Assembly (NCBI GenBank): GCA_964016885.1
Contig: OZ024741.1
Coordinates: 202,182,001-202,246,000 of the forward strand
Direction: 5' to 3'
Length of the DNA: 64,000 bases
Source: Eledone cirrhosa
Lineage: Eukaryota
Each line of letters opens with the position of its first letter. Position 1 is the stretch's first letter. The notes under the pieces are model-generated. The model was not told the origin of the DNA. It searched no databases and saw nothing but the letters and a program-made list of their open reading frames with translations. Position numbers and translations under genes: made by a program. This document shows positions 4,441-63,303 of this stretch, piece after piece.

Positions 4441-4477
4441 TATATATATATATATATATATTAGTAAATTGAATAGA

Positions 4478-5472
4478 TTTCACCGTATTTTTGACTAAAG
4501 GAATTTTAGCCTGATAATGGGATTTAGAACCCTCAGATAAATGGAAAAAGATGAGTATTGACGTACATGGGAGTTGAACCCACATCTTTGGTTATCGCGA
4601 CCACTGTGCTACCATTACACCAACACATCACCCGTCTCTTTCCATTCAAATTAGAAGCTACATTCTTAGTGAGTTTAAATGGCAAGTAAGTATGTTTTGA
4701 AACAGTGAGCAGGTTTGAAATTAGGAAATAGAATAGCTTTCACCGTATTTTTGACTAAAGGAATTTTAGCCTGATAATGGGGTCTAGAACCCTCGCTAAG
4801 AATGTAGTTTCTAATTTGAATGGAAAGAGATGGGTGATGTGTTGGTGTAATGGTAGCACAGTGGTCGCGATAACCAAAATGTGGGTTCAACTCCCATGTA
4901 CGTCAATACTCATCTTTTTCCATTTATCTGAGGGTTCTAAACCCCATTATCAGGCTAAAATTCCTTTAGTCAAAAATACGGTGAAAGCTATTCTATTTCC
5001 TAATTTCAAACCTGCTCACTGTTTCAAAACACATTTACTTGCCATTTAAACTCACTAAGAATGTAGTTTCTAATTTAAATGGAAAGAGACGGGTGATGTG
5101 TTGGTGTAATGGTAGCACAGTGGTCGCGCTAACCAAAGATGTGGGTGCGACTCCCATGTACGTCAATACTCATCTTTTTCCATTTATCTGAGGGTTCTTA
5201 CTTGATATATATATAAGTATGTTTTGAAACAGTGAGCAGGTTTGAAATTAGAAAATAGCATAGCTTTCACCGTATTTTTGACTAATGGAATTTTAGCCTG
5301 ATAATGGGGTTTAGAACCCTCGGAGAAATGGAAAAAGATGAGTATTGACGTACATGGGAGTCGAACCCACATCTTTGGTTATCGCGGCCACTCTGCTACC
5401 ATTACACCAACACATCACCCATCTCTTTTCATTCAAATTAGAAACTACATTCTTAGCGAGTTTAAATGGCAA
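4478..5472. repeat. 260-bp unit array (forward 4478-4794, inverted 4795-5198, forward 5216-5472) next to (TA)n
   Basis: CACCGTATTTTTGAC recurs at 4481 and 4741, and as reverse complement near 4970-4983. Confidence 0.92.
5095..5165 (+). ncRNA. tRNA-like cloverleaf in the 260-bp unit (other copies 4836-4905 +, 4559-4629 -, 5346-5416 -)
   Basis: Acceptor GATGTGT/GTACGTC; D arm GTGTAATGGTAGCAC; stem TGGT/ACCA with 7-nt loop; consensus T arm GTGGG-TTCRACT-CCCAT (this copy TGCGACT); T5 about 10 nt downstream. No U33, so not a canonical tRNA. Confidence 0.65.
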
Positions 5473-22435: not shown

Positions 22436-22636
22436 CCATAGACACTGTATCTAATATAAGGTAGATTGATAGTTGTATATGAATATTATCTTTATTCATA
22501 ACAAAATTGTTCTGATTAAAATGGTTGATTAGTCCTTCTGATACCAACGTGTCTATGATCACCCTACATTCTATGACACAAACTGTCTATTTTAAAGTAT
22601 TTTGTTTTGATTTAATCCTTTACCATTTACATTACT

Positions 22637-24070
22637 GATGGATCAGGTTATGAAAGTGGCAGAAAGGATATTAGCACAACTAATTAGAAAAAGGGTCAAA
22701 CTAGATGAGATTCAGTTTGGTTTTGTGCCTGGGAAGAGTATAACAGATGCCCTCTTCTTGGTGAGACAATTGCAAGAGAGGTTCTTAGAGAAAAATAAGC
22801 CACTATACTTAGCCTTTGTTGACCTAGAGAAGGCCTTTGATAGGGTACCCCGATCTGTCATCTGGTGGTCCCTAAGGAAGATGGGTGTTGAGGAATGGCT
22901 TGTGAGGACAGTGCAAACTTTGTACAGAGGTACTCTCAGTAAAGTCAGGGTAGGAATGGAGTTTAGTGAGGAATTCCAGATACAAGTAGGTGTACATCAA
23001 GGTTCGGTCCTCAGCCCGCTCTTGTTCATTATAGTCCTCCAAGCCATAACAGAGGAGTTTAAGACTGGCTGTCCATGGGAACTTCTCTATGCTGACGATC
23101 TGGTTCTTATAGCAGAATCAGTAGAGGAGCTAGAGAATAAATTCTGGCTATGGAAACAGCAGTTGGAAGCAAGAGGACTGAGAGTGAACCTAGCTAAGAC
23201 AAAAGTGTTGATGAGTAAAAAAGAGGACAAAACTCTGATTCCGTCAGGGAAATGGCCATGTTCGATATGCAGAAAAGGAACTGGCATAAATTCTATAAAA
23301 TGCACACAATGCAGATCCTGGGTACACAAGAGATGTAGCGGGATAGCAGGCAAACTAACAGGTAGGGAGAAATATGTATGCAGTAGATGTACAGGGAAAT
23401 TAGACAGTAGAAGTCGCATTGATAGACACATTTTTCAAATGCAGGAGGGCGCTATAGAAGTGGTGGATAGCTTCCGGTACCTAGGAGATAAGATTAGCAT
23501 GGGAGGAGGGTGTTCCGAGGCCATAGTATCTAGAATAAGGACGGGTTGGAAGAAGTTTAGGGAGCTGCTGCCTCTGTTGACGAAGAAGGGTTTCTGCCTG
23601 TGTACGAAAGGCCGGTTGTATGATGCCTGTGTGAGGAGCGCGATGCTGCATGGTAGTGAGATATGGGCAGCAACTGGAGAGAAATGAGGCACAATGCTCC
23701 GTTGGATGTGCAGTGTAAATGTGCGTGAACGACCCAGCATAAATGTGTTGAGAGAGAAACTGTGTCTGAGAGGGATAGAATGTAGTGTACGGGAGAGAAG
23801 ACTGAGGTGGTATGGACATGTGATGCGCATGGAGGATGACCGATGGGTGAAGAAGTGCCAGGAAATGCCAGTTGAAGGAAGACGTGGTAGAGGTAGACCA
23901 CGAAAAACATGGGTGGAGGTGGTGAGAACAGACCTCAAATTGCTGAAGCTCGCGGTGGAGATGACGAAGGACCATGACAAGTGGAGAGATGCTGTGCTGA
24001 ATAAGACCCGTCCCACCCTTGCAAGCAGGGAAAAGCGGACGTAAAATGATGATGATGATGATGATGATGA
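22637..24070 (+). mobile_element. 5'-truncated young RTE (RT + PHD-like finger, one frameshifting deletion near 23675)
   Basis: ORFs 22638-23687 (QGSVLSP, LYADD) and 23694-24044; (GAT)n tail. Confidence 0.93.
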
Positions 24071-26849: not shown

Positions 26850-29800
26850 TACCATGCGACCCTCAGTTCCTACCTCACAATTTCCCTCCCCCCCACCCCC
26901 ACACACCACCATAGTCTATTCGACCAATCAAACCTAGCATGCCATTTCCACTGCTGCTGCTGCTACTACCTGCCTAACTAACTCTCTCCTCCTCTGGCGC
27001 ATCCCAACACACCCTGCCATTACCCCACCACCACTGTCCTTCTAGCCCTCAATTTTCCCACCGTTATGGATGGATGAGCTGGGAATACACGAGCAACTCT
27101 GAATCAATAGATGAAATATGAATCTGCGAGCTACCAAGCACCCACGTGAAGCGCCAACCCAGAGACCCTCCCCTACGAGTGTCGACAAATGCCCAAAACT
27201 CCGAGTTGGTACCATCAATGTAGGCTCAATGAAAGGAAGAGCAGGAGAAATCGTAGAAATGCTAGAGCGAAAGGAAGTTGATGTATGCTGTGTGCAAGAG
27301 ACTAGATGGAGAGGAGGGTCTGCTAGAGTCCTTGTAGGAAAAAGCCAGTGCTACAAATTTTTCTGGGTGGGAAATGACGATGGGATGGGTGGTGTAGGTA
27401 TACTATTAGCTGACAAGTGGGTAGATAAAGTAATCTCAGTGTACAGGGTAAATGCAAGAATCATTAAACTCAGACTAGTCCTGAATAAGACAATTACCAC
27501 AATAATTTCAACTTACGCACCCCAATCGGGGCTGCCAGACGAACTTAAGGATAGGTTTTACGAGTCCCTAATACACACTACTGCTCTAACAGACGACAAG
27601 GACTTCCTAATCATTGCAGGAGATTTTAACGGACACGTAGGTAAACACTGCGATGGCTTCAATAGAGTACATGGAGGCCATGGAGTTGGTACAAGGAATG
27701 AGGAAGGATTCAGACTTCTAGAATTCTGCGACGCCAATGACATGTCGATATGTAACACAAACTTTAAAAAACCCGACAACCACCTGATCACCTATAGATC
27801 AGGGGAGCACTCTAGTCAGTTAGATTTTATCCTCATCAGAGGACGTGACAGATGGACGGTCGTAAACACAAAAGCCTTCCCTAGTGAGGAATGTACATCC
27901 CAACATAGCTTAGTTGTCAGCGACCTCACGGTCAGAACTAGACGAGCCCTGAAACAGAGGCCAACCTGGAGAAGAAAGATCTGGAAGCTGAAAGTCCCCT
28001 CAACCAGTAACAGATTTAAAGATATTTTACTCAACGCCTACGACAGTAAAGAAGAACAGATAGAGACATTTAACGTAGAAGAGAACTGGGAGTTCCTAAA
28101 AAATAACTTACTAGAGGCGACGGATGAGATTTGTGGCTGGAGTAAGACCTCAAGCAGGAGGAGAGTGACTTGGTGGTGGAACAATAAGGTAGATGAAGCA
28201 GTCAAGGCCAAGAGACAGGCATGGAAAGAATGGAAGAACGGGGGGAGCAGGGTACATTACATAGAGACCAAGAGGGAAGCTAGGCGACAAGTATACTTAG
28301 CTAGGAGGGAAGCAGAGGATAGAAAATTCAAGCATGTTTTACAACGTGAGGACCAGAAACAGGAGGTATTCAAGATTGCGAGGCAGTGTGTCAGAGATAG
28401 TTGTGATGTCATTGGAGAGAAGTGTATCCGGAATGATAAAGGTGAGCTTGCCCTCACAAGTGCTGAGAAGAAAGATGCATGGAAGAGTCATTATGATAGA
28501 TTACTAAATGAGGAGAATGCATGGGAAGAAGAGACCCTACCCCACGTAGACCCTATAGAGGGACCAGCAGTACAAGTCAGCGGCAGCGTAGTAAGTAAGG
28601 CAATCAGAGATATGAAGATAGGGAAGGCAACCGGTCCATCGGGTATAGCTGCCGAGATGCTGAAGGCATCTGGGTCTGTAGGTCACACTATAACCACACG
28701 TATCGTTAACCAGGTAATACTAGAGGGGGCCATACCAAAAGATTGGTGCAGTAGCATCATTGTCAACTGCTACAAAGGTAAAGGCGATGCACTAGATAGA
28801 GGAAACTATAGAGGTATAAAGTTGATGGACCAGGTCATGAAAGTAACAGAAAGAGTTATAGCACAGCTGATTAGGGACCGGGTGAATATAGACGAGATGC
28901 AATTTGGGTTTGTACCAGGGAAAGGCACCACTGATGCGCTCTTCCTTGTGAGGCAATTACAGGAAAAGTACCTAGCTAAAAGTAAGCCACTCTACTTGGC
29001 ATTTGTCGACCTTGAGAAAGCCTTTGACAGAGTTCCACGTGCAGTAATCTGGTGGGCTCTTAGAAAACTAGGAGTAGATGAATGGCTTGTGAAAGCGGTA
29101 CAAGCCATGTATAGGGGAGCAGTCAGCAAAGTTAGGATTGGCAATGAGTATAGCGAGGAATTTAGCGTACAGGTTGGGGTCCACCAGGGCTCTGTTCTTA
29201 GCCCTCTCCTGTTCATCATAGTCCTGCAGGCAATAACGGAGGAGTTTAAGACCGGATGCCCATGGGAACTCCTGTATGCTGATGACCTCGCACTCATAGC
29301 TGAATCTATGGTAGAACTAGAGAATAAATTCCAAACCTGGAAGCAGGGACTAGAGAGAAAGGGCCTCAAAGTCAACATGACAAAGACTAAGGTCCTTATA
29401 AGTAGACGAGAAAACAGAACCCAGATCCCCTCAGGGAAATGGCCTTGCTCAGTATGTAGGAAAGGTGTAGGTAGGAACTCCATTCTTTGCCCCAAATGCA
29501 AACAATGGGTACACAAGAGATGTAGCGGGATCTCAGGAAGCTTAATTAAGAATGTAGGATTCACATGCAGCAGCTGTGCTGAAACAGCAAGCAAACAGCC
29601 ACAGGAAACAAGTACCACCAATCTCTGGGAGGGCCCTGTAGAAACAGTAGACAGCTTCTGCTACCTAGGTGACCGAATTAGCAACGGAGGTGGGTGCTCA
29701 GAAAGTACAATAACTAGGGTAAGAACGGGATGGAAGAAGTTTAGGGAACTACTACCACTGCTAGCTGCAAAAGGCTTCTCCCTCAGAATGAAAGGCAGAC

Positions 29801-30542
29801 TGTATGATGCGTGTATCCGAACAGCGATGTTGCATGGTAGTGAGACCTGGGCGCTGAAGGTGGAAGACTTACGTAGATTAGAGAGAAACGAAGCCTGCAT
29901 GCTCCGATGGATGTGTAACAGTAATATACGTGAACGACAAAGCATAAATGAATTGAGAGAGAGACTGAGCATAAGAGGAATCAAATGCTGCGTGCAGGAG
30001 AGGCGGTTACGCTGGTATGGACATGTGATGCGTATGAAGGATGACAGCTGCATAAAAAGGTGCAGAGCACTAGAAGTTGATGGAAACCGCGGAGTGGGGA
30101 GACCCAAGATGACTTGGGATGAGGTGATAAAAGCCGACCTTACCCAACTACACCTCTCAAAGTCAATGACACACGACCGTGACTTCTGGCGTCACGCAGT
30201 AATACAGGGTACCCGACCTCCCATGGGTACATGCTGAAGCATATAAACAATATGCCCCCCCCCCACCCCACCGCAAGGTGGTCGTGGAGGTGCCACGGCA
30301 AAAAAGCACCCAGCCCACACTGTAAAGTGGACGTGTAGGCGCCACGAAAAAGCACCCAGCACTCACTGTAAATGAGGTTGGTGTTAGGAAGGGCATCCAG
30401 CTGTAGAAATCAAGCCAGATCAGTTCCTGTATGAGCAAGGCATGGTCAGCCGACCAGACACTGCCCACAACAGGACAACCCGTCTAACCCATGCTAGCGT
30501 GGAAGAACGGACGTAAAACGGTGATGATGATGATGATGATGA
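26850..30542 (+). mobile_element. Full-length RTE-clade LINE (5' boundary approximate)
   Basis: C-rich 5' UTR, single long ORF, ~290-bp 3' UTR, (GAT)n tail; no TSD resolved. Confidence 0.92.
27118..30237 (+). CDS. RTE polyprotein: APE endonuclease + reverse transcriptase + PHD-like zinc finger (1039 aa, uninterrupted)
   Basis: VGTINV, CVQET, GDFN, SQLD, SQH (APE); QGSVLSP, YADD, YLG (RT); CSVC-CPKC-HKRC-CSSC. Confidence 0.95.
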   Translation: MNLRATKHPREAPTQRPSPTSVDKCPKLRVGTINVGSMKGRAGEIVEMLERKEVDVCCVQETRWRGGSARVLVGKSQCYKFFWVGNDDGMGGVGILLADKWVDKVISVYRVNARIIKLRLVLNKTITTIISTYAPQSGLPDELKDRFYESLIHTTALTDDKDFLIIAGDFNGHVGKHCDGFNRVHGGHGVGTRNEEGFRLLEFCDANDMSICNTNFKKPDNHLITYRSGEHSSQLDFILIRGRDRWTVVNTKAFPSEECTSQHSLVVSDLTVRTRRALKQRPTWRRKIWKLKVPSTSNRFKDILLNAYDSKEEQIETFNVEENWEFLKNNLLEATDEICGWSKTSSRRRVTWWWNNKVDEAVKAKRQAWKEWKNGGSRVHYIETKREARRQVYLARREAEDRKFKHVLQREDQKQEVFKIARQCVRDSCDVIGEKCIRNDKGELALTSAEKKDAWKSHYDRLLNEENAWEEETLPHVDPIEGPAVQVSGSVVSKAIRDMKIGKATGPSGIAAEMLKASGSVGHTITTRIVNQVILEGAIPKDWCSSIIVNCYKGKGDALDRGNYRGIKLMDQVMKVTERVIAQLIRDRVNIDEMQFGFVPGKGTTDALFLVRQLQEKYLAKSKPLYLAFVDLEKAFDRVPRAVIWWALRKLGVDEWLVKAVQAMYRGAVSKVRIGNEYSEEFSVQVGVHQGSVLSPLLFIIVLQAITEEFKTGCPWELLYADDLALIAESMVELENKFQTWKQGLERKGLKVNMTKTKVLISRRENRTQIPSGKWPCSVCRKGVGRNSILCPKCKQWVHKRCSGISGSLIKNVGFTCSSCAETASKQPQETSTTNLWEGPVETVDSFCYLGDRISNGGGCSESTITRVRTGWKKFRELLPLLAAKGFSLRMKGRLYDACIRTAMLHGSETWALKVEDLRRLERNEACMLRWMCNSNIRERQSINELRERLSIRGIKCCVQERRLRWYGHVMRMKDDSCIKRCRALEVDGNRGVGRPKMTWDEVIKADLTQLHLSKSMTHDRDFWRHAVIQGTRPPMGTC

Positions 30543-30975: not shown

Positions 30976-31567
30976 CTTAAGCCGCAAGGATATAAGGAAG
31001 AAAGAATGGAGTGAGATGTCAAGATGACGAAAGATAGAGACATGATATATGTATGATTCAAACAAGAGCATGAGAACTAGGGCAGGGCTCATGTATGAGG
31101 ATTCCTACAAGGTTCTATGAATTCAAATATAATGAAATGAAATGTTGAATTAAAAGACAGCTAGTACACAAGTTTGAGGGTTTCCTACCAGATTCATTGA
31201 ATAAATAAATTATTACTTAGAACTAAATATAGTTAGAAATAACAATGAAAATAGGTTATTACCAGAGGAAAATTTTTAGATATTCACATACTGTTTGCAA
31301 CATAAGTAACAGCTAGTTGGAAAAGAATCAAGTGGAGAGTGAGAGGGGTTCTATTTTTTTCATATATGATATAGGGAGGTAGAGAGAGGGTGTCTAAAAC
31401 ATACATGGAAAGCCTGACATGCTCCCCAATATACTGTCAATATTTTGTTAAGATGAGAACTTTTTAGTGTTGTTTCTGTAGGTATGTGAAACAGATTTCA
31501 CTATACTGAAAAATTTGTTATATTGTACTTATTATAACTGAGAGTTTAACCTCTTGAGTGAGTATAT

Positions 31568-32507
31568 ATGAATGTATGTATAGTATATTTGCCAATATAC
31601 TGTATGTTTAATTAAAAACATTTAGAAGACCATACGTTATCAGCTTTAAAGTAGTGACTATGTCACTTACTTCTTTTCGGCAAAAGATGAGAGAGAAGCT
31701 GACAGTCTATTTGAAGCTGGTTGGCGTTCATCAGAGCTACAGACTCCCCTGCTTCTGCCGAAAATTATAGAAGCTGGATTCTTATAGAATTCCAGTAATA
31801 ATCAGGAGCTGATTATACAGTACAATTGCCGGTCCAACAAAAATTAGGTATTAGGATTGGTGCTCTGAAATAGCGATGTATACATGAATGTATGTATAGT
31901 ATATTTGGCAATATACCGTATGTTTAATTAAAAACATTTAGAAGACCATACACTATCATTTTTAAAGTAGTGACTATGTCACTTACTTCTTTTTGGCGAA
32001 AGAAGGGAGAGAAGCTGACAGTCTGTTTCAAGCTGATTGGCGTTCATCAGAGCTACAGACTCCCCTGCTTCTGCCGAAAATTATAGAAGCTGGATTCTTA
32101 TAGAATTCCAGTAATAATCAGGAGCTGATTATACAGTACAATTGCCGGTCCAGCAAAAGTTAGGTATTAGGATTGGTGCTCTGAAATAGCGATGTATACA
32201 TGAATGTATGTATAGTATATTTGGCAATATACCGTCAGCTCCTGATTATTACTGGAATTCTAATAAGAATCCAGCTTCTATAATTTTCGGCGGAAGCAGG
32301 GGAGTGCGTGGCTCTGATGGACACCAACCAGCATGAAACAGACTGTCAGCTTCTCTCCCTTCTTTCACCGAAAAGAAGTGACATAATCACTACTTTAAAA
32401 CTGATAGCGTATGGTCTTCTAAATGTTTTTAATTAAACATACGGTATATTACCAAATATACTATACATACATGTATACATCGCTATTTCAGAGCACCAAT
32501 CCTAATA
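31568..32507. repeat. 316-bp tandem array (starts 31568, 31884, 32200) plus inverted copy 32235-32507; retrozyme-like
   Basis: ATGAATGTATGTATAG at exact 316-bp spacing; TA-rich flanks; hammerhead motif in each complete copy. Confidence 0.9.
32005..32065 (-). ncRNA. Type I hammerhead ribozyme, intact core
   Basis: GGGGAGUCUGU-AGCU-CUGAUGA-ACGCCAAUCAGCUU-GAAA-CAGACUGUC/AGCU-UCUCUCCC; predicted cut between 32017 and 32016. Confidence 0.8.
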
Positions 32508-32544
32508 CACAATATATATATATAAGGAAACAACACAATTCTCA

Positions 32545-37734: not shown

Positions 37735-40345
37735 ACATAGATACTAAAAATAGACTGGAAATAAAGTACAAAACTAGGAGGAAAAAGCTAAATATTATCA
37801 TAGAGGAACTGAAGCAACGCATTGTAGCAAAGAGAGCAAAAATTAGGCAATACGAGAGCAGAGTCAGTCAGTAAAGACAGAACGGCATGTTTGACAACAA
37901 CCAGAAGATGCTGTTTGGACAGCTTGAAGGGAAAGAAAGAGGCAACGACTTGATCCCTGAGGCGGAACAAACTAGGACATTCTGGAAAGGAATATGGGAG
38001 CAGGATGTTAAACATAATGACCAGGCAGTGTGGATTGAGACAGTACAAAAGGAGATTAGTGAACAGGCACACCAACAAACTGATTTGAGTATCACAGTTG
38101 AAACTCTTAAGGGGCAGGCCAAAAAGCTAACCAACTGGACATCACCAGGCCCAGATGGTGTGCAGGGGTATTGGATTAAAAATATAACATCCCTCCACCC
38201 GAAACTGACAACCATGTTCAATGACTGCTTGATGTCAGGTGAGGTACCAGAGTGGTTGACAAAAGGTACCACAGTTCTGGTAATGAAAGACCGAATCAAG
38301 GGTAATGATGTTACCAACTATAGACCTATCACATGTCTGTCCATAATGTGGAAACTGTTGACAAGGATTATGTCTGAGGAAATCTACCATCACCTCCACA
38401 CAAACAACTTGTTACCGGACGAACCGAAAGGATGCCGAAAGAAGTCCCGTGGCACAAAGGACCAGTTACTTATTGATAAGATGGTAATGAGGAATTGCAA
38501 GAGGAGACACACTAGTCTTGCCATGGGATGGATAGACTACAAAAAGGCATTTGACATGGTGCCTCATTCTTGGATCACCAAAAGTCTAGAGATCTTCAAG
38601 GTGGCAGATAACATCAGACAGTTGTTGGGCAAAAGTATGAAGTCCTGGAAAACAGAGTTAACATCAGCTGGAGAATCCTTGGGAGGCGTGAAGATCAAGA
38701 GAGGTATCTTCCAGGGAGATAGTCTGTCCCCTCTGTTGTTTGTCCTTGCTCTGATGCCCCTGACCATTATACTGCGAAAAGTGAGAGCAGCATACAAGTT
38801 GGGAAAGAGAGAGCTTACCATCAATCACTTCCTCTTCATGGACGATCTTAAGCTCTTCGGGAAGAGCGAGAAGGAGTTGGATGTGCTTGTTGACACTGAC
38901 CGTATTTTCAGCAATGATATATGTATGCAATTTGGTATTAGTAAGTGTGGAGTCCTTGTGGTGAAGAGGGGTAAATTGAGCAGAAGCAACGGAATCCAGG
39001 TACCAACGGGTGAGATGATAAAGGAAATTGACACTGAAGAAGGATACAAGTATTTGGGTGTTCTGGATGACATCAAGAACAAAAAAATGAAGGAATTGAT
39101 AAGATCTGAATACATTCGGAGAGTAAGGAGCGTATTAAAGTCACATCTGAACAGTAGGAATGCCATAAGTGCAGTAAATTCCCGAGCTGTGTCTATTATT
39201 AGGTACAGTGCGGGAATTCTGAGATGGAATGTTGCTGAACAAAAAGAAATGGATAGGAAGACTAGGAAGCTATTGACTATCTACAACATGTTCCACAAGA
39301 GGAATGATGTCGATAGACTCTACTTAAGGAGATCTGAAGGTGGAAGAGGTCTTATCAGCATAGAGGACTGTGTTCAGATGGAGAAAAACAACCTACACAA
39401 ATACGTGACTGATAGTAAGGAGCCAATGCTCAGAATTGTACTGAAGGAGAGGACAATAGACCAGGGGATGTCCAAGGAGGAAATAACAACAAGGAGAAAG
39501 AGCAGCCTTCATGAAAAATCCCTTCATAGTACCTTCTTTGAGAAAACTGAATTCAGAGATCCACAGACATGGAACTGGTTGAAAAGAGGAGACCTTAAAA
39601 AGGCTACAGAAGGAATGCTAAAGGCTGCGCAAGAGCAGGCCCTCAAAACGAAGTGGTTGAAACACCATATTTACAAGGAGGAGGCTAGCCCACTGTGCAG
39701 GATCTGTGGAGAGAGAGAGGAGACTGTGGCTCACATTGTATCCGAGTGTAAACACCTAGCCCAGACTCACTATAAAAGCTGGAGACATGATGTGATGGGC
39801 AGGGTGATCCACTGGCACCTATGCAAAGTAAACAATTTACCACATTCTGAGAAGTGGTATGAGCATAAGCCAGAGTCGGTGATAGAAAACGATCAGGTGA
39901 AGGTGCTGTGGGATTTTAGGATACAGACGGACAAGAAACTGGAACACAATAGACCTGACCTGGTGGTTGTGGACAAGGAAAAAAGATTGCGCCTGATTGT
40001 GGATGTGGCCTGCCCATTCGACATGAGAGTGCAAGAGAAGGAAAGGGAGAAAATTAACCGATACCAGGACTTAAAGTGGGAGGTAAAAAGGATTTGGAAC
40101 TGCCATGAAGTCAAAGTGGTCCTGATTGTCATAGGCGCACTAGGTACTATCTCAAAAAGTTTTCAGGGATGGTTAAAGAAAATTGACCCCGCTACGCTTT
40201 TTGGAACGCTTCAAAAGGCATGCTTGCTGGGAACAGCAAGAACCCTCCGATACATCCTGAATATCTGAGGCTGCAGGTAGTGGCTTGATATTCATTTCAA
40301 CAAACTTTCCAGTTAAATAACATCAATGACTGAGACTCAAAGAAC
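37735..40345 (+). mobile_element. 5'-truncated R4/Dong-type non-LTR retrotransposon between (TAA)n tracts
   Basis: ORF 37887-40268: RT (QGDSLSP, FMDD), CRICG...H...C knuckle, RHD, NRPD...D restriction-like endonuclease. Confidence 0.93.
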
Positions 40346-41152: not shown

Positions 41153-41597
41153 CATAATGGTAGTAATAATAATAATTACTTTATCGTTATTAATAATAAT
41201 GATGGAGATAATTATAATAATGATTACAACGCTAACATACCTACTACGTCTACTAACACCCGATGTGTTCTTATACCGCCAAGTATTCTTAAAGAATAAG
41301 CATAACATGAATGTGTAACCTTACTTTGCTCTCGTATGAATTGGACTTTCCCTTCAGCAACATCTTCAAGGGCAATCATTTTTCTCTGATGAGTCTTATA
41401 AGTGCATCTCTGCTATAGTATATATACACACATATATGTTTACCTGTTGTATTATAAATATACTTATAAATGTGGTTGGCATAGAAACCAAGCCAGAACC
41501 AGTTCCGTATGAGCAAGACATGGTCACTTGATCTGACTTGTCTCACAACGGGACAACTTGTCTAGCCAATGTTAGCATTATCTTATTTCTCATTCTT

Positions 41598-41633
41598 TCT
41601 TCTGATGAAGGAGTAGTGTCCGAAACGTTAAGA
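41598..41633 (+). ncRNA. Minimal type I hammerhead (Penelope pLTR type)
   Basis: UCUU-CUGAUGA-AGGAGUAGUGUCC-GAAA-CGUU/AAGA; stem I UCUU:AAGA, palindromic stem III. Confidence 0.75.
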
Positions 41634-41719
41634 CCCTCTTCCTGCTATTTCAAGCGTTAACTTAATATATTCCTTCCATATACTGTACCGATTGTTGCCT
41701 CCGTCTCTGATTCTTCTGT

Positions 41720-42600
41720 CGCTTTTCTAGATATTTCTCTATCTATTAATCACTCTCACCACACCCTCTCTACTTCCATCTTTATTAAACCAACAGACTC
41801 CCAATCTTACCTCGACTTCACCTCCTCCCATCCAACCCACACCAAACACTCCATACCCTATTCCCAATTCCTCCGTCTTTGTCAATTCTGTAGCCAGGAC
41901 GACGATTTCGAAATCCATTCCCTTCACATGACTTCCTGCTTCATCCAGCGTGGATATCCCCCACCCTGATCCAAGCTGTTCTCACCCACGCCCGTGAAAC
42001 AGACCACACCACAGCCTTCTCACATCACCCCCCCCCAACACCTGTGTTCCTTTCCCCCTCACCTACCACTCCAGCGACATATCCTCCATTCCTTCCATAT
42101 CCTCTCTTCTGACCCCATCACTTCTCGCTTTTTTCCAAACCCACCCATTACTGCTTTTAAGCGCGCCCGCAACCTCTCAAATTCCTGGTTCGCAGTTCCT
42201 TTTCATCCTCTCCCACGACTCCACCCGGCTCTCAACTTTGTTCCCGTTCCCACTGCAACACTTGTCCCTTTATTTCCACCCTCACCTAACGAGTCTTTCC
42301 GTATCTGCCATTCCTTCACCTGCACATCCACCCACGTTGTCTATGCCCTCTGGTCTTCCCTTTGCGGGTCTTTATATATCGGACAAACAGGACGCCGTAT
42401 GGCGGACCGTTTTGCCGAACATTTGAGGCATATACACCTTGGTTTGGATACTCCTGTCGCCAGTCATTTCTGTTCTCCTGGTCATTCTTCCCTACATGTT
42501 TCAGTTCTGGGTGACCTTTTACATCATGGATCACAGGCCTCACGCACCAGGACTGAACAAAGTCTGATTCACCGCCTTGTGTCCTATTCCACCAACCCAC
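41720..42600 (+). mobile_element. Penelope-like element fragment (RT C-terminus + GIY-YIG, Neptune-like), frameshifted
   Basis: FLDISL...KPTDSQSYLDFTSSHP..SIPYSQFLRL...RGYP; VVYAL..LCGSLYIGQTGRR..DRFAEH. Confidence 0.9.
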
Positions 42601-45034
42601 CCTCCCATACAACCCCATGAGGACAGGCTGAAGTAAATGCATCCACTGAAGCCCCCAACCCACACTGTAAAGTGGTCGTGTAGGTGTCACGACAAAAAGC
42701 AACCAATCCACACAGTAAAGAGGTCGTGTAGGCATCACGACAAAAGGCACCCAGTACTCACAGTAAAATTAAACAGAAAACATGAGTGGAATAGCAACAT
42801 CACAACTAGTAATTACAGACGAAAAAAAAAAAATCAAAGACATACAGACACACACAAAAACAACATGTTGTAGGACAGAACAAAGAAGAGATACAAAATA
42901 AAAACCCAGTCACTGAGGAGGTTAGAGAATTTGTGATGAAAGAGCTTTGACAATATATAAACATCCGGTTATCGAACCAACCAACCAACCGGAAATTTAT
43001 AATAAATTGAAGTGAAAACCAACAGATGCATGTGTTTTTATTGGCAACATGACCCTCCCTAAGTATAACAAAGTATTATATATATATATATACATACACA
43101 CACATGTAGACTTATCATCATAAGCAACTAGATACTGAATATAAAGCATTAGTTTACATGGCCAGAACACACATTTTGAGAACACACAAAAGAACCAGAT
43201 CTTATGTAATGACTAGACCCAATAGTATACTAGCCACCATGTAATGAAAATGATCCTATCCTAAAGGGTTAACTCCCAAACCACTTTAGAAAATATTTCC
43301 CTTCTAAATTACAGGCAGTATGGCTTCCACAAAGACAAAGCCTAAAAAGATCTACTCTATGTCATACTGATTTCTTTCTATTCAACATTCCACTAACAAC
43401 TATGTTGTTGCCATTGATATCAATAGATACCAATGGCAACAACACTAACTGAGACTAACTTATTGTTAACTTAGGAGTAATTCAAATTGAACTATTTCAT
43501 TGCCATATTACTAATGAAATACACTGCCAATGATTTTCAATTCATTTTGAAATAATAAATAATTTGGAAGGATTTAGTAATACAACTAACTTTTTCATTA
43601 TTAACTTGGGATTTGAAGTAGGTATCACAGCAGCACTCTGAAAAGGGTCGACAAGCACAATTTCACGACACAAAAATCCACTTTTTGCTTGATTATTTCC
43701 ATGTCAAATCCTTTTTTCCATGATATATAATTATATATCATTTGAAAGTTCTGGATGTGAACTTTCTTCTCATATACTTTTGATCAAAATCCAACACTTA
43801 CATACCATGCCAGATCCCCTCTATGACCCTCATATTTCCCACACATTTACAATGTTTGTCCCATTTTTGTTTTTGACTGCTGAACAGTAACGCTAGTTCT
43901 TTTCAATTGACTGGAGCACTATAACTTGATTTGTGTTGGAAATGATACAATCATGAAGAGGACTTTTTAAATTTATTTTGATATAAAAAAATCAACTGGG
44001 GTAGGTCAGATGATTGTTATGAAATATAAAAGTGAAATTTTTATCCCATGCAGGGAGAGCTGAAACGTAACACGAATCTAGGGCTTCAAATATCGAGTTT
44101 GAGCCAGAATTTCAAGAAATGGACAAATTAATTAAGTAACCATATATTTCTACGAAAAAATGCACTAAATTGAGCTACATAAGTCATGGAATTGTTGTAT
44201 TGAAAATATTGTTTATTCCCTCTCACTATTTTAACATGTGGAGAGCGAGGTTAGAATTTACATTTTTCTTTGAGAAATATTGTTTAAATTTTGCCAATAA
44301 AAATAATATAGGCGCACTGCTGTTTTTCTGATTTAGTGTGAGGACCAAGAACACCAGAGGTCTCGACATTGACTGGTATGAAATGGAAGTGGTCGGACAA
44401 GCCCCAGTATTTATCTTCCTGTCCCCTGCATTGTGGACACTGGTGTTCAGGTTTGCATATTAAATTATGAAGTAATTTCAGCACCTCCCATAATACTTGC
44501 CTGCCCACTTGACATTCCCTGGTACTGCATCCTTTCTACAAAAGAACAATACACAATTCAAAACATTCACTTCACACACTAAATCTAATAATTCTCCAAC
44601 ATTTTTAGGAACAGCAAATTCCCCAAAGAGATAAAATTCAACTTAACATTTTTGATACCAACTCACCTGAAACTGTCCCTGGTTTTATGATACAAACTGC
44701 CCATTTTAAAATGTCCATACTTATATTTAAAACCCTCCAGAATAATTTTATGTAATAAATTTTTGTTTATTAATACTCTAAATATGAGCTTGCTTATGAA
44801 AAAGTTATGATTTTATTAAATTCCTCAAAATCTTTATTTTAAAAATTAATTGAAACATATATTCAGTGTATTTCATTAGAAAGTTTCCACTATAGTCAAA
44901 AACTACAAACAGCTGCTATCACTTAAAATAAATACATTTCGCATTAGAATAGTGCTTACATGTCTGAAATGTTTCTCTTATCACAACACCATCACACACT
45001 CATGAGAATTTAAAAACCGCACCCTCTAAACATA

Positions 45035-56747: not shown

Positions 56748-59720
56748 TTACCATCTAGATCGAGAATAAAATATTTCGGATATTTTTTTTAGAACACGAT
56801 AAGGGCCAGAATATGGAGGTCGAAGATGAGCTGAGATGGTGTCGTTTCGAACGAAAACGTGTGTCCAATCTTTAATGTCTGAAGGTACGTGTGTGGCCGT
56901 GTTCTGTTGACGGATGCTTGCAGGAGCAAGGTGAGACACATATTGTCGAAGACGGTGTACGTATGATCCTGGGTCTGGAACATCCTGAGGAGAGATGGGA
57001 GCAACCATCTGACCAGGTAGAACCAGGGTGGTGCCGTACACTAATTCTGCAGGTGTGTGTCCGAATTCCTCCTTAACGGTGGATCGAATGCCCAGAAGGA
57101 TGAGTGATAGGTATTCAAACCAGTGTGTCTTGTCTGGATATGCTTTTATTGCAGCTTTCAATTGGCGATGGAATCTTTCCACGAGACCATTAGCTTGCGG
57201 GTGATAAGCTGTCGTGCGGATGTGTTTACATCCTAACAAGCGAGTCAGTTCCCTGAAGAGGTGGGAGTCAAATTGGCGTTCTCTTTCCGTTGTTATCTTC
57301 GCTGGGGCGCCATAACGTGATACCCAGTGTAAAATCAAAGTTTTAGCGACTGTTTCCGCTGAGGTATCATTTATGGGAAAAGCCTCAGTCCAACGAGAAA
57401 ATCGATCTATGCAGGTGAGCAAGTGTGTGTAGTTCTGTGATGGTGGTAGCGGTCCGACGATGTCGATATGCACATGATGAAAACGTGCATCAGGTTGCGC
57501 GAATGTGCCGAGTGGAGTTTTGATGTGTCTGTGGACTTTGGCTTTCTGGCAGGCAATGCAGCTCCTGGACCAGTCGCGCACGTCCTTGTTAATGTTAGTC
57601 CACACAAAACGAGCAGAGATGAGTTTCTGTGTAGTCCGGATTCCCGAGTGAGACAAGCAGTGTAAAGCAGAAAAAACTTGTCGACGATGCATCTGTGGTA
57701 TGTACGGTCGTTCATGACCGGTAGAAAGGTCGCACCAAATTTGTCCCGGGGAAGAAGGAATGGGAACTTGCTGAAACTTGAGGGATGGCGAATCTCGGAG
57801 CTTGATAAACTCTTCGTCAGTCTCTTGGTCAGCTGCGATCTGTTGAAGGTCGATGCCTGAATGCACATGTATTGCGTTCAGCTGGATTCGGGACAGGGCG
57901 TCAGCTGCTACGTTGTCTGATCCTTTGATATGCCGAATATCAGTTGAATATTGGGAGACAAAATCCAGGTGTCGGAGTTCTCTCGGTGAATGTCGATCAG
58001 GTTTGGTACAGAACGCATAAACTAGTGGTTTATGGTCCGTGTAGATCACGAAATCTGATCCTTCGAGCATGTGCCGAAAATGCTTAACCGAAAGATAGGT
58101 TGCCAAAAGTTCGCGGCCAAAGGTACCGTATTTCGTTTCTGCCGGTTGCAACCGCTTAGAAAAGAAGGATAAGGGTTGCCACACGCCATCGACATGTTGT
58201 TGTAGAACGCCTCCAACCCCCGTGTCTGATGCGTCAACTAGCAGCGAAAGAGGAGCGCCAGACCTGGGGAAAACGAGCATGGAAGCGTTTGCCAACATTT
58301 CCTTCAGGCGGTTAAAAGATGTTAATTCTTCCGCGTTTAGAGTGATCTCTTTGCGAGTCCGGTTACGAAGAAGGTCCGTGAGGAGTCTGGCTGCGTCGGA
58401 ACAATGAGGGATGAACCGCCTATAAAAATTCACCAGACAGAGGAATTCACGCAGTTTCCGAAGTGATGTTGGTGCGGGAAAACTGCGGATAGCTTCTACT
58501 TTCTCGGGAAGTGAACGAATGCCGTCTTTATCGATGATGTGTCCGAGAAAGGACAGTGAAGGGACGCCGAGAAGGCACTTGCTGGGGTTGATGATGATAC
58601 CGTACTCAGCCAAACGTTAGAAAAGGAGATCTAAGTGCTTCTCGTGTTCATGCTCGGAAGTACTTGCTACCAGCACGTCGTCAATATACGCGTATACGAA
58701 GGGTAGATCGCGTAACACGGTGTCAATAAACCGCGGAAAAGTTTGTGCAGCGTTGCGCAGACCGTACGGCATTCGCAGGAATTCGAATTAAACCGAACGG
58801 TGTTGTGATTGCGGTCTTCGGAATGTCTGCAGGCTCCATAGGTATCTGGTTATATGCACGCACCAAATCTACCTTGGAAAAGATGCGTGCGCCTTGCAGA
58901 GAGGCAGAAAAATCGTGCAGGTGAGGTACAGGGTAATTATCGGGCACTGTAGAATTGTTAAGTGCACGATAATCCCCACATGGTCGCCAATCATTCTCGG
59001 TTTTTTTTTTGGAACAAGGTGTAGGGGTGCAGACCAGTTGCTGGAGGAAGGGCGAATGATTCCGAGGTCCAGCATGTGTTGGAACTCCTGCTTGGCGATT
59101 CTCAATCGATCTGGAGGCAGTCTCCTTGGTCGGACAGCTGTGGGTGGTCTCTTTGTCTCGATGTGGTGCGTGACACTATGCTTAATAGGACCATCCTTAA
59201 ATACCGGGCGAGTGATGTCTGGGTATTTCTGGAGAATGCCGTTGTACCACGAAGGCTCTGACTGGCAAATTACAGGGCCCACTGTGGATTGCGTGGTAAA
59301 TGTACCTCTCACAGTGAGGTTTGTGGTGGTGTCAATAAGCCTCCGGTTCTTCATATCCACCAGAAGGTTGAAGTGGTGGAGAAAATCGGCTCCTAGGATC
59401 GGGGTCGGCAGGTCTGCCACGACAAACACCCATTGAAAACGCCGCCTCAGGCCTAAATTGAGGGTCAGAGACTTCTCCCCGAAAGTCGGAATTGACGATT
59501 GGTTCACTGCCTGCAGAAAGGACGGGGTTGGGTGTCTTTTACCCGAGATTAGTGAAACAGGAATAACACTAACCTGGGCTCCTGTATGCACGAGGTAACG
59601 GATGCCTGTCGCCTGGTCGTTAATAAAAAATAGACGACTTTTCTTTTCAGTACCAGGGGTGAACGTCGTCGCTAGGCCCTGGTCTGCCCGTTTCCCTGGG
59701 TGGTATTCTGGAAAGAGCAC
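56748..59720 (-). pseudogene. pol: Gypsy pol (PR-RT-RH-IN) with frameshifts and a stop
   Basis: LVHTGA (catalytic D replaced by H), YIDD near 58680, DAS, TDH, HHCC, NGLVER, GPY; broken between about 58610 and 59010. Confidence 0.9.
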
Positions 59721-60541
59721 GGGGCCCTACACTTAGATGCCCGAACGCCGAATTCTTCGTGATACCAGCAGAGGTTGCCAGACACACGATTTTGACTGGG
59801 ACTTCTCGATCTTTGACGGTGAAAGGGTCTGGACCGACTGTTGCTGCGCCGCCGGTGTGTTTGCAAGGTCAGGCTTTCTAATTGGTTTGAGATGGCTTTG
59901 ATTTGACCAGCCTGTTCTCTGATCATAGCCCGCAGCTCTGAAATCTCGGAGGTAGAGTCCGAGGACGCTACGAAAGGGTTCGTCCGACGATCTACCTGTG
60001 CTACTGAGGCAAAAGGGTTTGATACCTCAGCGATCTTATCTGCGACACTCGCCAGTTCCTCTGGGGTTGCTGACTCGTTAGTCGACGCCAGAATGCCCTG
60101 CATCGATAAGGGCAAGCGCTGTATAAACAACCGTTTCAGCAGATCTTCTGAAAGCGGCTGGTCCTCCATCGGCTGTCTCATCTTTCGTAATAGTTGGGAC
60201 GGTTTTCTGTCCCCCAATTCTTCTGCAGACACGAGTTGGTTCAGTCGTCTCTGCTGTGACGCGGTCGTCCGCTTGACCAATTCCTTGCGGAATGATTCAT
60301 ATGACACCGTGCCCGGCGGTGCCATGACGAGGTCCCTCACCTCAGCCAAGACTTCTGGCGGGACAGACCCAATGATGTAGGTGAGCTTTGCGGAATCGCT
60401 CTTAATTCTGTTCGCGGTGAATTGCGCTTCTATGTGAGCGAACCACAGAGTCGGGTCGTTGGACCAAAATACGGGGACTTTCAATGTTAACGCCGCTTGT
60501 GAGGTTGGTATCTCGGCCTCTGTCGTTTGTGACATGTCCAT
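59672..60541 (-). CDS. gag: Gypsy Gag with CHCC motif
   Basis: PVFWSNDPTLWFAHIEAQF; LGDRKPSQLL; CWYH-x9-C-x3-C. Confidence 0.9.
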   Translation of the reverse strand: MDMSQTTEAEIPTSQAALTLKVPVFWSNDPTLWFAHIEAQFTANRIKSDSAKLTYIIGSVPPEVLAEVRDLVMAPPGTVSYESFRKELVKRTTASQQRRLNQLVSAEELGDRKPSQLLRKMRQPMEDQPLSEDLLKRLFIQRLPLSMQGILASTNESATPEELASVADKIAEVSNPFASVAQVDRRTNPFVASSDSTSEISELRAMIREQAGQIKAISNQLESLTLQTHRRRSNSRSRPFHRQRSRSPSQNRVSGNLCWYHEEFGVRASKCRAPCSFQNTTQGNGQTRA

Positions 60542-62331
60542 GTTGATATTTTCTTAGGTGCTGTCTGGTTGCGCGTTCGACTCACGTTCGGGTCACCAAT
60601 TGTAGCAACGTGGTTAGTCAGTCTAGTCACTACTGCTGATCAGATCCGAGAATAGCCCTTAGAAGGACTGTTATCGCATACGGTCTGATCAGATCTGAAG
60701 ATAGCCCTTAAAAGGACTGTTGTCGCATATAGCCCTTAAAAGAACTGTTGAGGATGGACAGACGAAAGCACAAGTTGAAAGGACGAAGCAAGGCGAGATG
60801 TAAATTCGATCAGCTATTTATTTTCACATGAAGCGACGATACGAGGTACAAGGCGTGTGTGAGTGACAAAGCGTGGCAGAGGCGAGGAACAACGATACGC
60901 GAGTTGACTCTGCCAAATGTCGACTGCTGAAGTGTTTGGGACCACTCTATTTATACAGAAATAATCGTTTGATGTTTAGCCGGTGTGTAGGCGTTTATTC
61001 TGGTAGCTTTTAAGGTTTTTTTTTGTTTCACGTTGAGGTAGATAGCTAACGGGTAGATGGCGCTGTATATTTCACAGATGTTATTTCCGGTGGCTGTACA
61101 CTCCCTTCTCCTCTTTGTGGTCTCGAGATACACAAACTTTGAGCGTCCATCTCACACCTTCTAGGACAGGTCACAGGCACATCGCCAGTTTTGGCGGCAT
61201 AAAATGGAGACTACAATATATTTTTAAAACAGGCCCTTCTCTCTAAGGCCTGAACTCGTCCCTTGTCATCCCGCACGAAGGACGATGCGTTATGATGCTC
61301 ATTTGTTCCCCTCACCATATTTCAGTTGCTGTTTCGGTGGTCTTATTCTCGCTAGTCACCAATCTGGTACTTTGTCGATCCCGTGAATACTGGAATTTTT
61401 TAGAGGCTGCCTTTACATGCCTCGTCATACTTACTTTAATTGGGTCGTGAGAGTTTTCTTGGGAGTTACAGGTGTTATTCATTGCTCCATCTCCCCTAGT
61501 AGTTTACCGCCGTTGGTCCGGGGCTGCTTATTAGTCTGACAGGTGCCTGCTTATATCGCAACTAACCATCATATCTGGTGGCCGTGTCGCTATTTACCAC
61601 CTGCTACCCGTTCTCTAGTAAAACATACACCGAGTGTCGCATGGCTGGAATGAAAATCAGTGGTTCGAAAACTGAGACGGTCGTCTTCTCAAGGAAGCCT
61701 GTGCAGTGCACCCTACTTTGTAAATGGAGTTCCACTGAAACAGTTAGAGAAGTTCAAGTATCTCGAGGGCCGTATTCACGAGTGATGGAAGGTAGGAGGC
61801 TGAATTAAGTGCTAAAATTGCAGGAGCTGGTGCAGTAATGCTTCAGCATTCAGTAATCAGAAGAAGAAGGGAGATAGGCATGAAGCCAAACTCGCTATCT
61901 TCAATTCGGTATTCGTGCCAACCCTTACCTATGGTCATGAATCTTGGGTAATGACCGAAAGAATACAATCGCGAATACAAGCAGCCGAAATGGGGTTCCA
62001 CCGAAGGGTCTTTAGAGTATTATTAGTGCGTATAGAGTGCGTAGCTCGGAAATCAGAGAGCCACATCAGATAGAGCCGTTACTTCTCCGAATTGATGGTT
62101 AACAATTCCGATATTACGGACATGTGGTTAGAATGTCTCGAGAATGAATTGCTGGACAGATTTTACGGGCAAAACCAACTGGCAGGAGACCCAGGCGTAG
62201 ACCCGGAGCAAGATGGTTTGATGATATCCATGAGCTTGGCTGGTCTCGCTTGCAGATCAGTTGGGGACGGTTGTTTGTGACAGGACTCGCTGGAAGGAGT
62301 TTTTGAGGACTCTGCCCCCACTACCCTCTCA

Positions 62332-62416: not shown

Positions 62417-63127
62417 GGGTTTTTTTTTTCTTTTTAAACTGGGCGTCACTCTAATCGAGAAGATCTATAATAAACGGAACCCCAGCTGAGACTGTATTGT
62501 CTTCTTTAGGGATATGTAGGACTACATTTTCTACACTGTAGTTTCTTTATTTGACGGAATTTTGCTGATAAACAAGAAAGATTCAATTAATTTATATATA
62601 TACGAACCTTCACAATTTCTACTACATCTAGTATTTCTAAAACATCTATTAACAGTACATTACAGATTGTTCACAGTTCTTTCAGAAGGAAAATATCAAC
62701 ACATATAATAAATACAATCAGCCGCACCTCCCACCTTATGCGTCAGTCTTCTGGCTTATGTTAAAACATAATCTGCCACTAAAAAGACTATGCTTTGTAT
62801 ATCATACACAGATATGAGAAGAGTAGCTTCGATTGCAATTAATAGATGTTGTTAATTGCTGGTTACTGAGTGAGAAATTAATTGCGAACAAAGTAAGACT
62901 TAAGAGAAGAAATGTTCACAGTAAAATTTAAGAATATCCATATTTCTGTGTTTTTAATTTTCAATTACATTATATTTTTAATTATTTATAGCCACATAAT
63001 TCTAAGCCAACGAAAAGTCGTTTAGAGTTATCTTACTTGAAAACATATGACATTAACATACATGATTCAATCGTCGAAATGATATTTAGTAATTCACATC
63101 ATTGTATGTATGTATATAACACACTTC

Positions 63128-63162
63128 TCACCTGAAGAAGGGCTTATGCCCGAAACGTCGTC
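63128..63162 (+). ncRNA. Minimal hammerhead in a solo Penelope-type pLTR (about 63118-63248)
   Basis: CUGAAGA-AGGGCUUAUGCCC-GAAA-CGUC/GU; stem I reduced to 2 bp. Confidence 0.65.
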
Positions 63163-63246
63163 CCCCACCTACCCCCACTCTCCTGAGCGTGAATTTAATA
63201 AACATTTATTGTACTGCCTCTCTGTTCTGTCCCTGTTCAATTTTTC

Positions 63247-63303
<57 letters not shown>

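Follow-up and report, generated by a model that had tools for sequence, protein, structure and literature searches.

A mutated insertion of a high-copy 316-bp hammerhead family in Eledone cirrhosa, likely a non-LTR retrozyme inserted by Penelope-like machinery

A tandem and inverted array with one hammerhead per unit

The window analysed here is a 64,000-nucleotide stretch of Eledone cirrhosa DNA (assembly GCA_964016885.1, contig OZ024741.1, positions 202,182,001 to 202,246,000). It contains a minus-strand tandem array with a period of 316 and 2.1 copies (2.13 units, 95% matches), which meets an inverted partial unit head-to-head at 32235; the inverted unit extends to 32508 (Table 1). The original prediction had described about 2.1 direct units plus an inverted partial unit, and the period, the number of copies and the inversion were all recovered; the limits it gave, 31568–32507, locate the array, although its true bounds are 31562/3–32508. 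Both the length of the unit and its GC content (36.7%) fall inside the retrozyme range of 150–450 bp and less than 50% GC. There is no open reading frame (ORF) in the unit, with several stops in each of the three sense frames, ORFs of at least 120 aa are absent from the locus, and it contains no reverse transcriptase (RT) plus GIY-YIG ORF. An ORF start within the unit, as in some of the pseudo-LTRs (pLTRs) of Penelope-like elements (PLEs), was considered and rejected since both candidate ATG frames stop within 22 codons. No further copies of the 316-bp unit are present within the 64-kb window, and no target-site duplication is discernible at the ends of the locus. Copies 1, 2 and 3 differ pairwise at 13, 20 and 15 of 242 sites, and in a transcript reading through the whole locus the two arms are predicted to fold to a long duplex with 81% paired.

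Table 1. Features of the array and its hammerheads, in window coordinates
Feature	Position	Strand	Description
Direct arm	31562..32235	-	2.13 units head to tail; 5'-truncated at 32235, with the RNA-sense 3' end at 31562/3
Copy 1	31562..31877	-	316 bp; differs from copy 2 at 16 positions (12 transitions, 4 at CpG)
Copy 2	31878..32193	-	316 bp; 36.7% GC
Partial unit	32194..32235	-	42 bp, pseudo-LTR-like; identical to copy 2, with 3 differences from copy 1
Head-to-head junction	32235		Two 5'-truncated arms, 1-nt microhomology
Copy 3	32235..32478	+	Inverted 5'-truncated unit
Tail	32479..32508	+	30 bp, 100% match to unit; inverted-arm 3' end 30 nt beyond direct-arm 3' end
(TA)6	32513..32524		Target-side microsatellite, separated from the tail end by 4 bases
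Predicted monomer	31701..32016	-	316 nt, cleavage to cleavage
Copy 1 hammerhead	31674..31764	-	Long helix I extension; C3 31734, C17 31701; core broken by G12>C (31713)
Copy 2 hammerhead	31990..32080	-	Core complete (C3 32050, G12 32029, C17 32017); stem II C-U mismatch, atypical loop 1
Copy 3 hammerhead	32284..32374	+	C3 32314, C17 32347; A9>G (32320), stem II 2 of 4 pairs, family-typical loop 1 region

Each unit carries one type I hammerhead motif, on the minus strand in the direct arm and on the plus strand in copy 3, with GUC at the cleavage nucleotide (C17) in all three; the predicted cleavage sites of copies 1 and 2 are exactly 316 nt apart. The core, the GUC site and the near-palindromic stem III are as originally described, and the motif matches a descriptor in the window. 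Helix I has six positions with one U-U, the family majority also having a G-U pair near the core, and it continues into a rod some 26 pairs long. Searching with a generic type I descriptor finds two places in the window, at 32050 and 42913, where 100 shuffled windows average 0.03 matches each, and we conclude that the type I hammerhead motif is real and not a chance occurrence. The second place, a hammerhead-like motif in the region 42905–42960 (+), lies downstream of the PLE remnant described below and is unlike the motif at 41602 in that remnant.

All three hammerheads in the window are damaged. The GAAA>CAAA change reported earlier for copy 1 corresponds to the loss of G12 and is accompanied by C15.2>U at 31709, and the A9>G change reported for copy 3 is indeed present, together with the loss of two stem II pairs. 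Copy 2 had been taken to be intact, which is true of its core but not of the rest: in stem II (32031) and at 32054, 32057 and 32058 its letters are not those of the family majority; copies 1 and 2 have one broken stem II pair and a changed loop 1 in common. A preprint regards loci with two consecutive complete motifs as active (bioRxiv 10.64898/2026.07.22.740005), and here one of the three cores, that of copy 2, is complete; by that definition the locus is not active. Because only this core is complete and copy 2 lacks family features, the locus probably makes no circle; the locus is decayed, and it is probably dead and no source of circles.

The covariance-model check proposed with the original prediction came out negative, as Rfam gives nothing at the gathering score in the window copies; the best match, searching these copies only, is copy 2 to HH9 (clan CL00010) at 16.6 bits, relative to a gathering threshold of 52 (E 0.66). 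The unit has a favourable circular fold (z -4.0 relative to 60 shuffles), as does the linear cleavage-to-cleavage monomer (z -3.75, with none of 100 shuffles as good), and the opposite strand likewise folds well (z -3.1). The hammerhead fold of copy 2 lies 10.7 kcal/mol above the minimum in its natural arm, and with the copy 2 core acting on the copy 1 site it lies 17.0 kcal/mol above the minimum, both values having no positive control. The folding energies come from models that omit hammerhead core contacts and refer to the window copies.

Dispersed copies in three organisms and the family-majority sequence

We aligned four of the nine sequencing runs listed, from three organisms, to a reference made of copy 1 and 312 bp of flank, requiring 80% likeness. 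Run X1 is from organism A, X7 has the same species label and consists of RAD reads from a separate sample and study, X4 is from organism B, and X6 is from organism C. Matches to the unit were seen in 6505 contigs of X1, 4576 reads of X7 (92% of which continue into unlike sequence), 17 contigs of X4 and four contigs of X6. The summed X1 depth is 12,000–500,000 on the unit versus 8.8 on most of the flank, depth not being convertible to copy number; the exception is a segment of the left flank (31481–31522) with a depth of about 700–1200, which is thus part of another repeat. The left junction of the locus has an exact match in an X1 contig spanning 31250–31591, noting that X1 may be the source sample. 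Pattern scans for the unit in metagenome, viral and genome contig collections gave no matches.

The head-to-tail joint (31877 to 31562) was observed in 14 X1 contigs, one X4 contig, one X6 contig and 266 X7 reads (53 starts), and a further 127 X7 reads have the unit end joined to the unit start one base off. The shorter side of the joint reaches up to 39 nt in X1, 37 nt in X6 and 54 nt in X7, all beyond the length of the 30-bp tail, and in X4 the loose end beside the joint is unit-like; true tandems therefore exist beyond the 30-bp tail. We conclude that this is a dispersed, high-copy, ORF-less tandem family with head-to-tail joints in all four runs and three organisms. A multi-copy, tandem unit with a canonical type I hammerhead and no ORF fits the description of a non-LTR retrozyme, in agreement with the type of family originally proposed.

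A different explanation is that the unit is the repeated terminal (pLTR) module of an autonomous PLE and the locus a short 5'-truncated insertion with no independent life. The same end anatomy would then be expected; most PLE copies are 5'-truncated, and opposite-strand pairs of minimal hammerheads 100–700 bp apart have been described (PMC4209133). X7 depth is also about threefold higher over the 3'-most 130 bp of the unit, although we rejected depth as proof of 5' truncation, as it is confounded by the divergence of the window copy and by restriction sites. However, direct joins of unit end to unit start occur in the 266 and 127 X7 reads as well as in organisms B and C. Past the tail there is no fall in X7 depth (618, 454, 514 and 864 in successive bins), and the loose ends there, among the 23 of 485 that are listed, are unit variants and not ORF. 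The hammerhead is moreover canonical, with a 4-bp helix II and no preceding bulge, unlike the bulged minimal PLE type (PMC4209133) represented in the window at 41602 and 63132. The original prediction had itself raised the concern that the unit is just the pLTR of a long Penelope element, and joints from unit end to unit start that exceed the tail length, present in three organisms, speak against it; we consider the explanation unlikely.

Comparison with the family majority was made from 40 of the 126 variant rows listed, with unphased counts. The majority letter restores G12 (431 of 466 X7 reads) and C15.2 (475 of 497 X7 reads), the one at 31715 re-forms the second pair of stem II (409 of 466 X7 reads and 95% of X1 depth), and no further invariant core positions are affected among these 40 rows. 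The family-majority motif has a full core, and its stem II has four Watson-Crick pairs closed by a 6-nt loop. The majority letters at 31738, 31741 and 31742 change one helix I pair and give a loop 1 with UAC or UGC on its 5' side, which presumably resembles the Schistosoma loop contact.

Paired positions outside the core also vary. At 31756:31682, copy 1 and organism B have A-U where copy 3 has G-C, and in unphased X1 counts the G and C letters account for 76% and 83% of the depth. Among the organism B sequences, one contig (depth 3.1, 16 of its 18 substitutions being visible) carries two double changes, at 31753:31685 and 31725:31716, one of them at CpG sites. The same contig has an altered letter at the free N7, and a single inserted base turns its stem III into a perfect palindrome. 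The contig's helix I is weakened at 31738, and that its few changes miss the core is not significant alone. The compensated pairs and the family-wide stem II pairing point to selection on RNA structure, which is suggestive and not proven.

We also considered a chance motif or an assembly artefact. Rfam gave no match at threshold, and among the 15 of 52 joints listed there are four strand-switch joints at other positions, given without orientation, and none at the window's own inversion joint (32235). Against this, the descriptor matches shuffled windows at the very low rate noted above, the three copies differ from each other at too many sites to be one collapsed sequence, and the majority sequence of the family comes closer to the canonical motif than the copies in the window do. 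We give this explanation almost no credence.

Two further observations concern diversity within the family. A double-hairpin segment, 31768–31815, is flanked in an organism B contig (X4) by two similar loose ends of 24–31 nt, which hints at a minisatellite of about 73 bp sharing this module, and X1 depth also peaks there. Loose-end consensuses at 31677 and 31756 in X1 and X7 suggest that one or more subfamilies of the unit have diverged and carry an altered hammerhead region.

Insertion ends and neighbouring elements

In RNA orientation the 5' ends of both arms abut, sharing a single base, and the 3' ends face outward. Both outer ends finish in AUAC, and 19 of the 30 tail positions are A or C. 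The predicted RT start sites are 30 nt apart, at 139 and 169 nt downstream of the predicted cut. Family copies have a fixed 3' end, with 623 X7 reads and 69 X1 contigs exiting the unit at 31563 with a (TA)n consensus. The 30-bp tail was seen at one locus, and we estimate the chance of a random offset falling in the 30–40 range at about 11/316.

PLE insertions are marked by a partial tandem, an inverted 5'-truncated copy at the 5' end, a one-sided tail of 30–40 bp and a microsatellite target (PMC8557442), and head-to-head inversions together with a 31-bp tail have been reported (PMC3846280). [quoted passage not shown] All four of the published marks are found at the locus, and we read its tandem, inverted, 30-bp tail and TA layout as a PLE insertion signature, a point that the original prediction did not make. 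The ends lend structural support to PLE mobilisation of the family.

The family might instead be a satellite that spreads by DNA-level recombination with local inversion, its hammerhead being an inherited neutral relic. This would account for damage in all three window hammerheads, a single local duplication could yield copies 1 and 2, and local tandem amplification from PLE termini has been proposed in a preprint (bioRxiv 10.64898/2026.07.22.740005). The 3' end shared at (TA)n by 623 reads, the variable inversion joints and the 30-bp tail are, however, marks of target-primed insertion, and the compensated pairs and family-wide stem II pairing point to RNA selection, such that we find a satellite of this kind very unlikely.

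A broken remnant of a PLE with a C-terminal endonuclease is present at 41590–42620 (+), with a minimal hammerhead at 41602 followed by an RT thumb, a CX4CX2C linker and GIY-YIG. Three broken frames within it (41661–42617) match the RT thumb, CxxC linker and GIY-YIG in the order of a 705-aa protein with an RT motif, with identities of 61%, 44% and 43% (Pfam GIY-YIG E 0.005; Atlas 0.94). The linker points to a Neptune/Nematis type (PMC8557442). The unit has no similarity above shuffles to this remnant or to the 63-kb hammerhead region, these comparisons yielding no autonomous partner, and we take the remnant to indicate co-occurrence with the retrozyme family, not partnership.

Several other elements lie in the window, which is repeat-rich animal DNA containing LINE RTs, a gypsy-type element and a DDE fragment (Pfam hits in seven of the 15 frames scanned). 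At 63120–63300 (+) there is a minimal hammerhead-like motif (63132) with a 4-bp stem II and a bulged A, followed by AATAAA and (TA)26, which is likely the 3' stump of another PLE family; the motif lies below the stem I cut-off of the descriptor and hence outside its two window matches. At 4460–5472 a unit of about 260 bp with tRNA-like sequence occurs as four copies in alternating orientation, 93–97% alike; the array begins at (TA)n, a second TA run lies near 5205, and the unit is absent from the rest of the window. The array looks like a second non-coding passenger with tandem and inverted ends of PLE type. LINE ORFs at 27115–30237 (+) and 22611–23687 (+) encode APE endonuclease, RT and a PHD finger, the first being an open 1040-aa frame whose best relatives are about 60% identical. 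A 797-aa RT frame at 37875–40268 (+), with a C-terminal zinc-knuckle and restriction-like endonuclease motif, we take to be R4/Dong-like, and SINE-like repeats near the locus presumably resemble octopus ones. A gypsy-type LTR retrotransposon occupies 56748–60553 (-) in several frames (DUF7041, protease, RT, RNase H, integrase). As candidate mobilisers we rejected the nearby LINE RTs (27115, 22611 and 37875) and the gypsy-type element (56.7–60.5 kb), because their Pfam domains are not PLE-type and the ends of the retrozyme locus have neither poly(A) nor LTR marks.

Proposed mechanism and comparison with known systems

Taken together, we consider it probable that the locus is a mutated insertion of a high-copy 316-bp hammerhead family, likely a non-LTR retrozyme, and likely inserted by a PLE RT/GIY-YIG protein. 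In a first step, family-typical arrays would be transcribed and the RNA would self-cleave after GUC, either as monomers or as double hammerheads via the palindromic stem III. Double hammerheads are known to form through palindromic stem III (PMC4209133), but only one of nine predicted Xenopus retrozyme dimers cleaved (bioRxiv 10.64898/2026.07.22.740005), which counts against this step. A host ligase may then circularise the 316-nt units, by analogy with other retrozymes (PMC7229834). In a second step the PLE protein would nick both strands of a TA repeat, and reverse transcription would be primed inside the RNA at two sites 30 nt apart. In the third, one cDNA of 2.13 units, copied round a circle or along a multimer, and another of 0.87 unit would have their far ends joined head-to-head, and in the fourth the copies would decay after insertion. 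Since hammerhead cleavage is dispensable for PLE insertion in vitro (PMC11167929), uncut multimers may serve the first and third steps.

A more specific and tentative reading, which we regard as possible but doubtful, is of one PLE reaction on retrozyme circles, in which a dimeric protein, priming from each of the two target strands, acts on two different RNAs and reads them 2.13 and 0.87 times round from starts 30 nt apart. Copies 1 and 2 have seven family-rare letters in common (31715, 31738, 31741, 31742, 31821, 31822 and 31824), six of which sit in two tight patches, 31738–42 and 31821–24. Copy 3 differs from them at all four rare-letter sites that it covers and has a common family letter at three. 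Two template RNAs, of which one was copied for more than two turns, would give this pattern, and local duplication after insertion fits it too; the private substitutions of copies 1, 2 and 3 (9, 4 and 11 in 242 aligned sites, the 11 including shared-letter sites) are too few to decide.

The machinery that moves animal retrozymes has so far been argued from co-occurrence and pLTR homology (PMC7229834; bioRxiv 10.64898/2026.07.22.740005). A retrozyme with PLE-specific ends would provide a mechanistic read-out and map two likely RT start sites on a 316-nt RNA, which could serve as a compact template for the in vitro PLE system, with circle and linear multimer compared (PMC11167929). The family also offers an abundant set of natural hammerhead variants, drawn from three organisms. 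If true and general, one reaction on circles would be direct structural proof of PLE rolling-circle reverse transcription of animal retrozymes.

Non-LTR retrozymes of animals are known from coral, mussel and axolotl (Cervera & de la Pena 2020, PMC7229834), and newt satellite 2 and Schistosoma Sm-alpha are cited as retrozymes (PMC6155905). They have been described from cnidarians to amphibians with PLE mobilisation proposed (PMC7229834), and those of vertebrates have been argued to be non-autonomous PLE derivatives (Li, Clavereau and Pollet, bioRxiv 10.64898/2026.07.22.740005), so that PLE mobilisation of retrozymes is itself already a published proposal. Retrozyme repeats are stated to carry no motif that names their partner (PMC7761336). 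In the mostly open-access literature searched, at the level of main texts, we found no published reports of this family, of cephalopod retrozymes, or of retrozyme tails or inverted arms.

The family resembles animal non-LTR retrozymes (PMC7229834) in its tandem units of 150–450 bp with GC below 50%, its one type I hammerhead per unit, its lack of an ORF, its highly self-paired fold and the presence of PLEs in the same genome. It differs from them (PMC7229834, PMC6155905) in that the copies here are damaged and the ribozyme and circle are predicted from sequence, and in having an inverted arm and a 30-bp tail, neither of which the main texts on animal retrozymes describe. Like the vertebrate retrozymes it would be a non-autonomous PLE derivative, with similar unit size and few units; the evidence in that preprint, the available text of which does not mention tails, is co-occurrence and pLTR homology, whereas here it is end anatomy, with no pLTR homology found in the two window regions compared (bioRxiv 10.64898/2026.07.22.740005).

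With endonuclease-bearing PLEs (Penelope/Poseidon, Neptune, Naiad) the locus shares the partial tandem, the head-to-head inverted 5'-truncated copy, the one-sided tail, the AT-rich or (TA)n target and a hammerhead upstream of the RT start sites (PMC8557442, PMC3846280, PMC11167929, PMC4209133). Unlike these elements, its unit has no RT/GIY-YIG ORF, its hammerhead is canonical and not minimal, and the 316-bp unit closes on itself. The Chlamys PLE derivatives (MRC1, PMC8557442) are similarly ORF-less and pLTR-forming, with multicopy head-to-tail insertions, but these are green-algal and have 3' sequence in common with known partners, and hammerheads are described as missing from most Chlamys elements (PMC8557442). 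The family is likely new but of the known retrozyme type, and not a new class of element.
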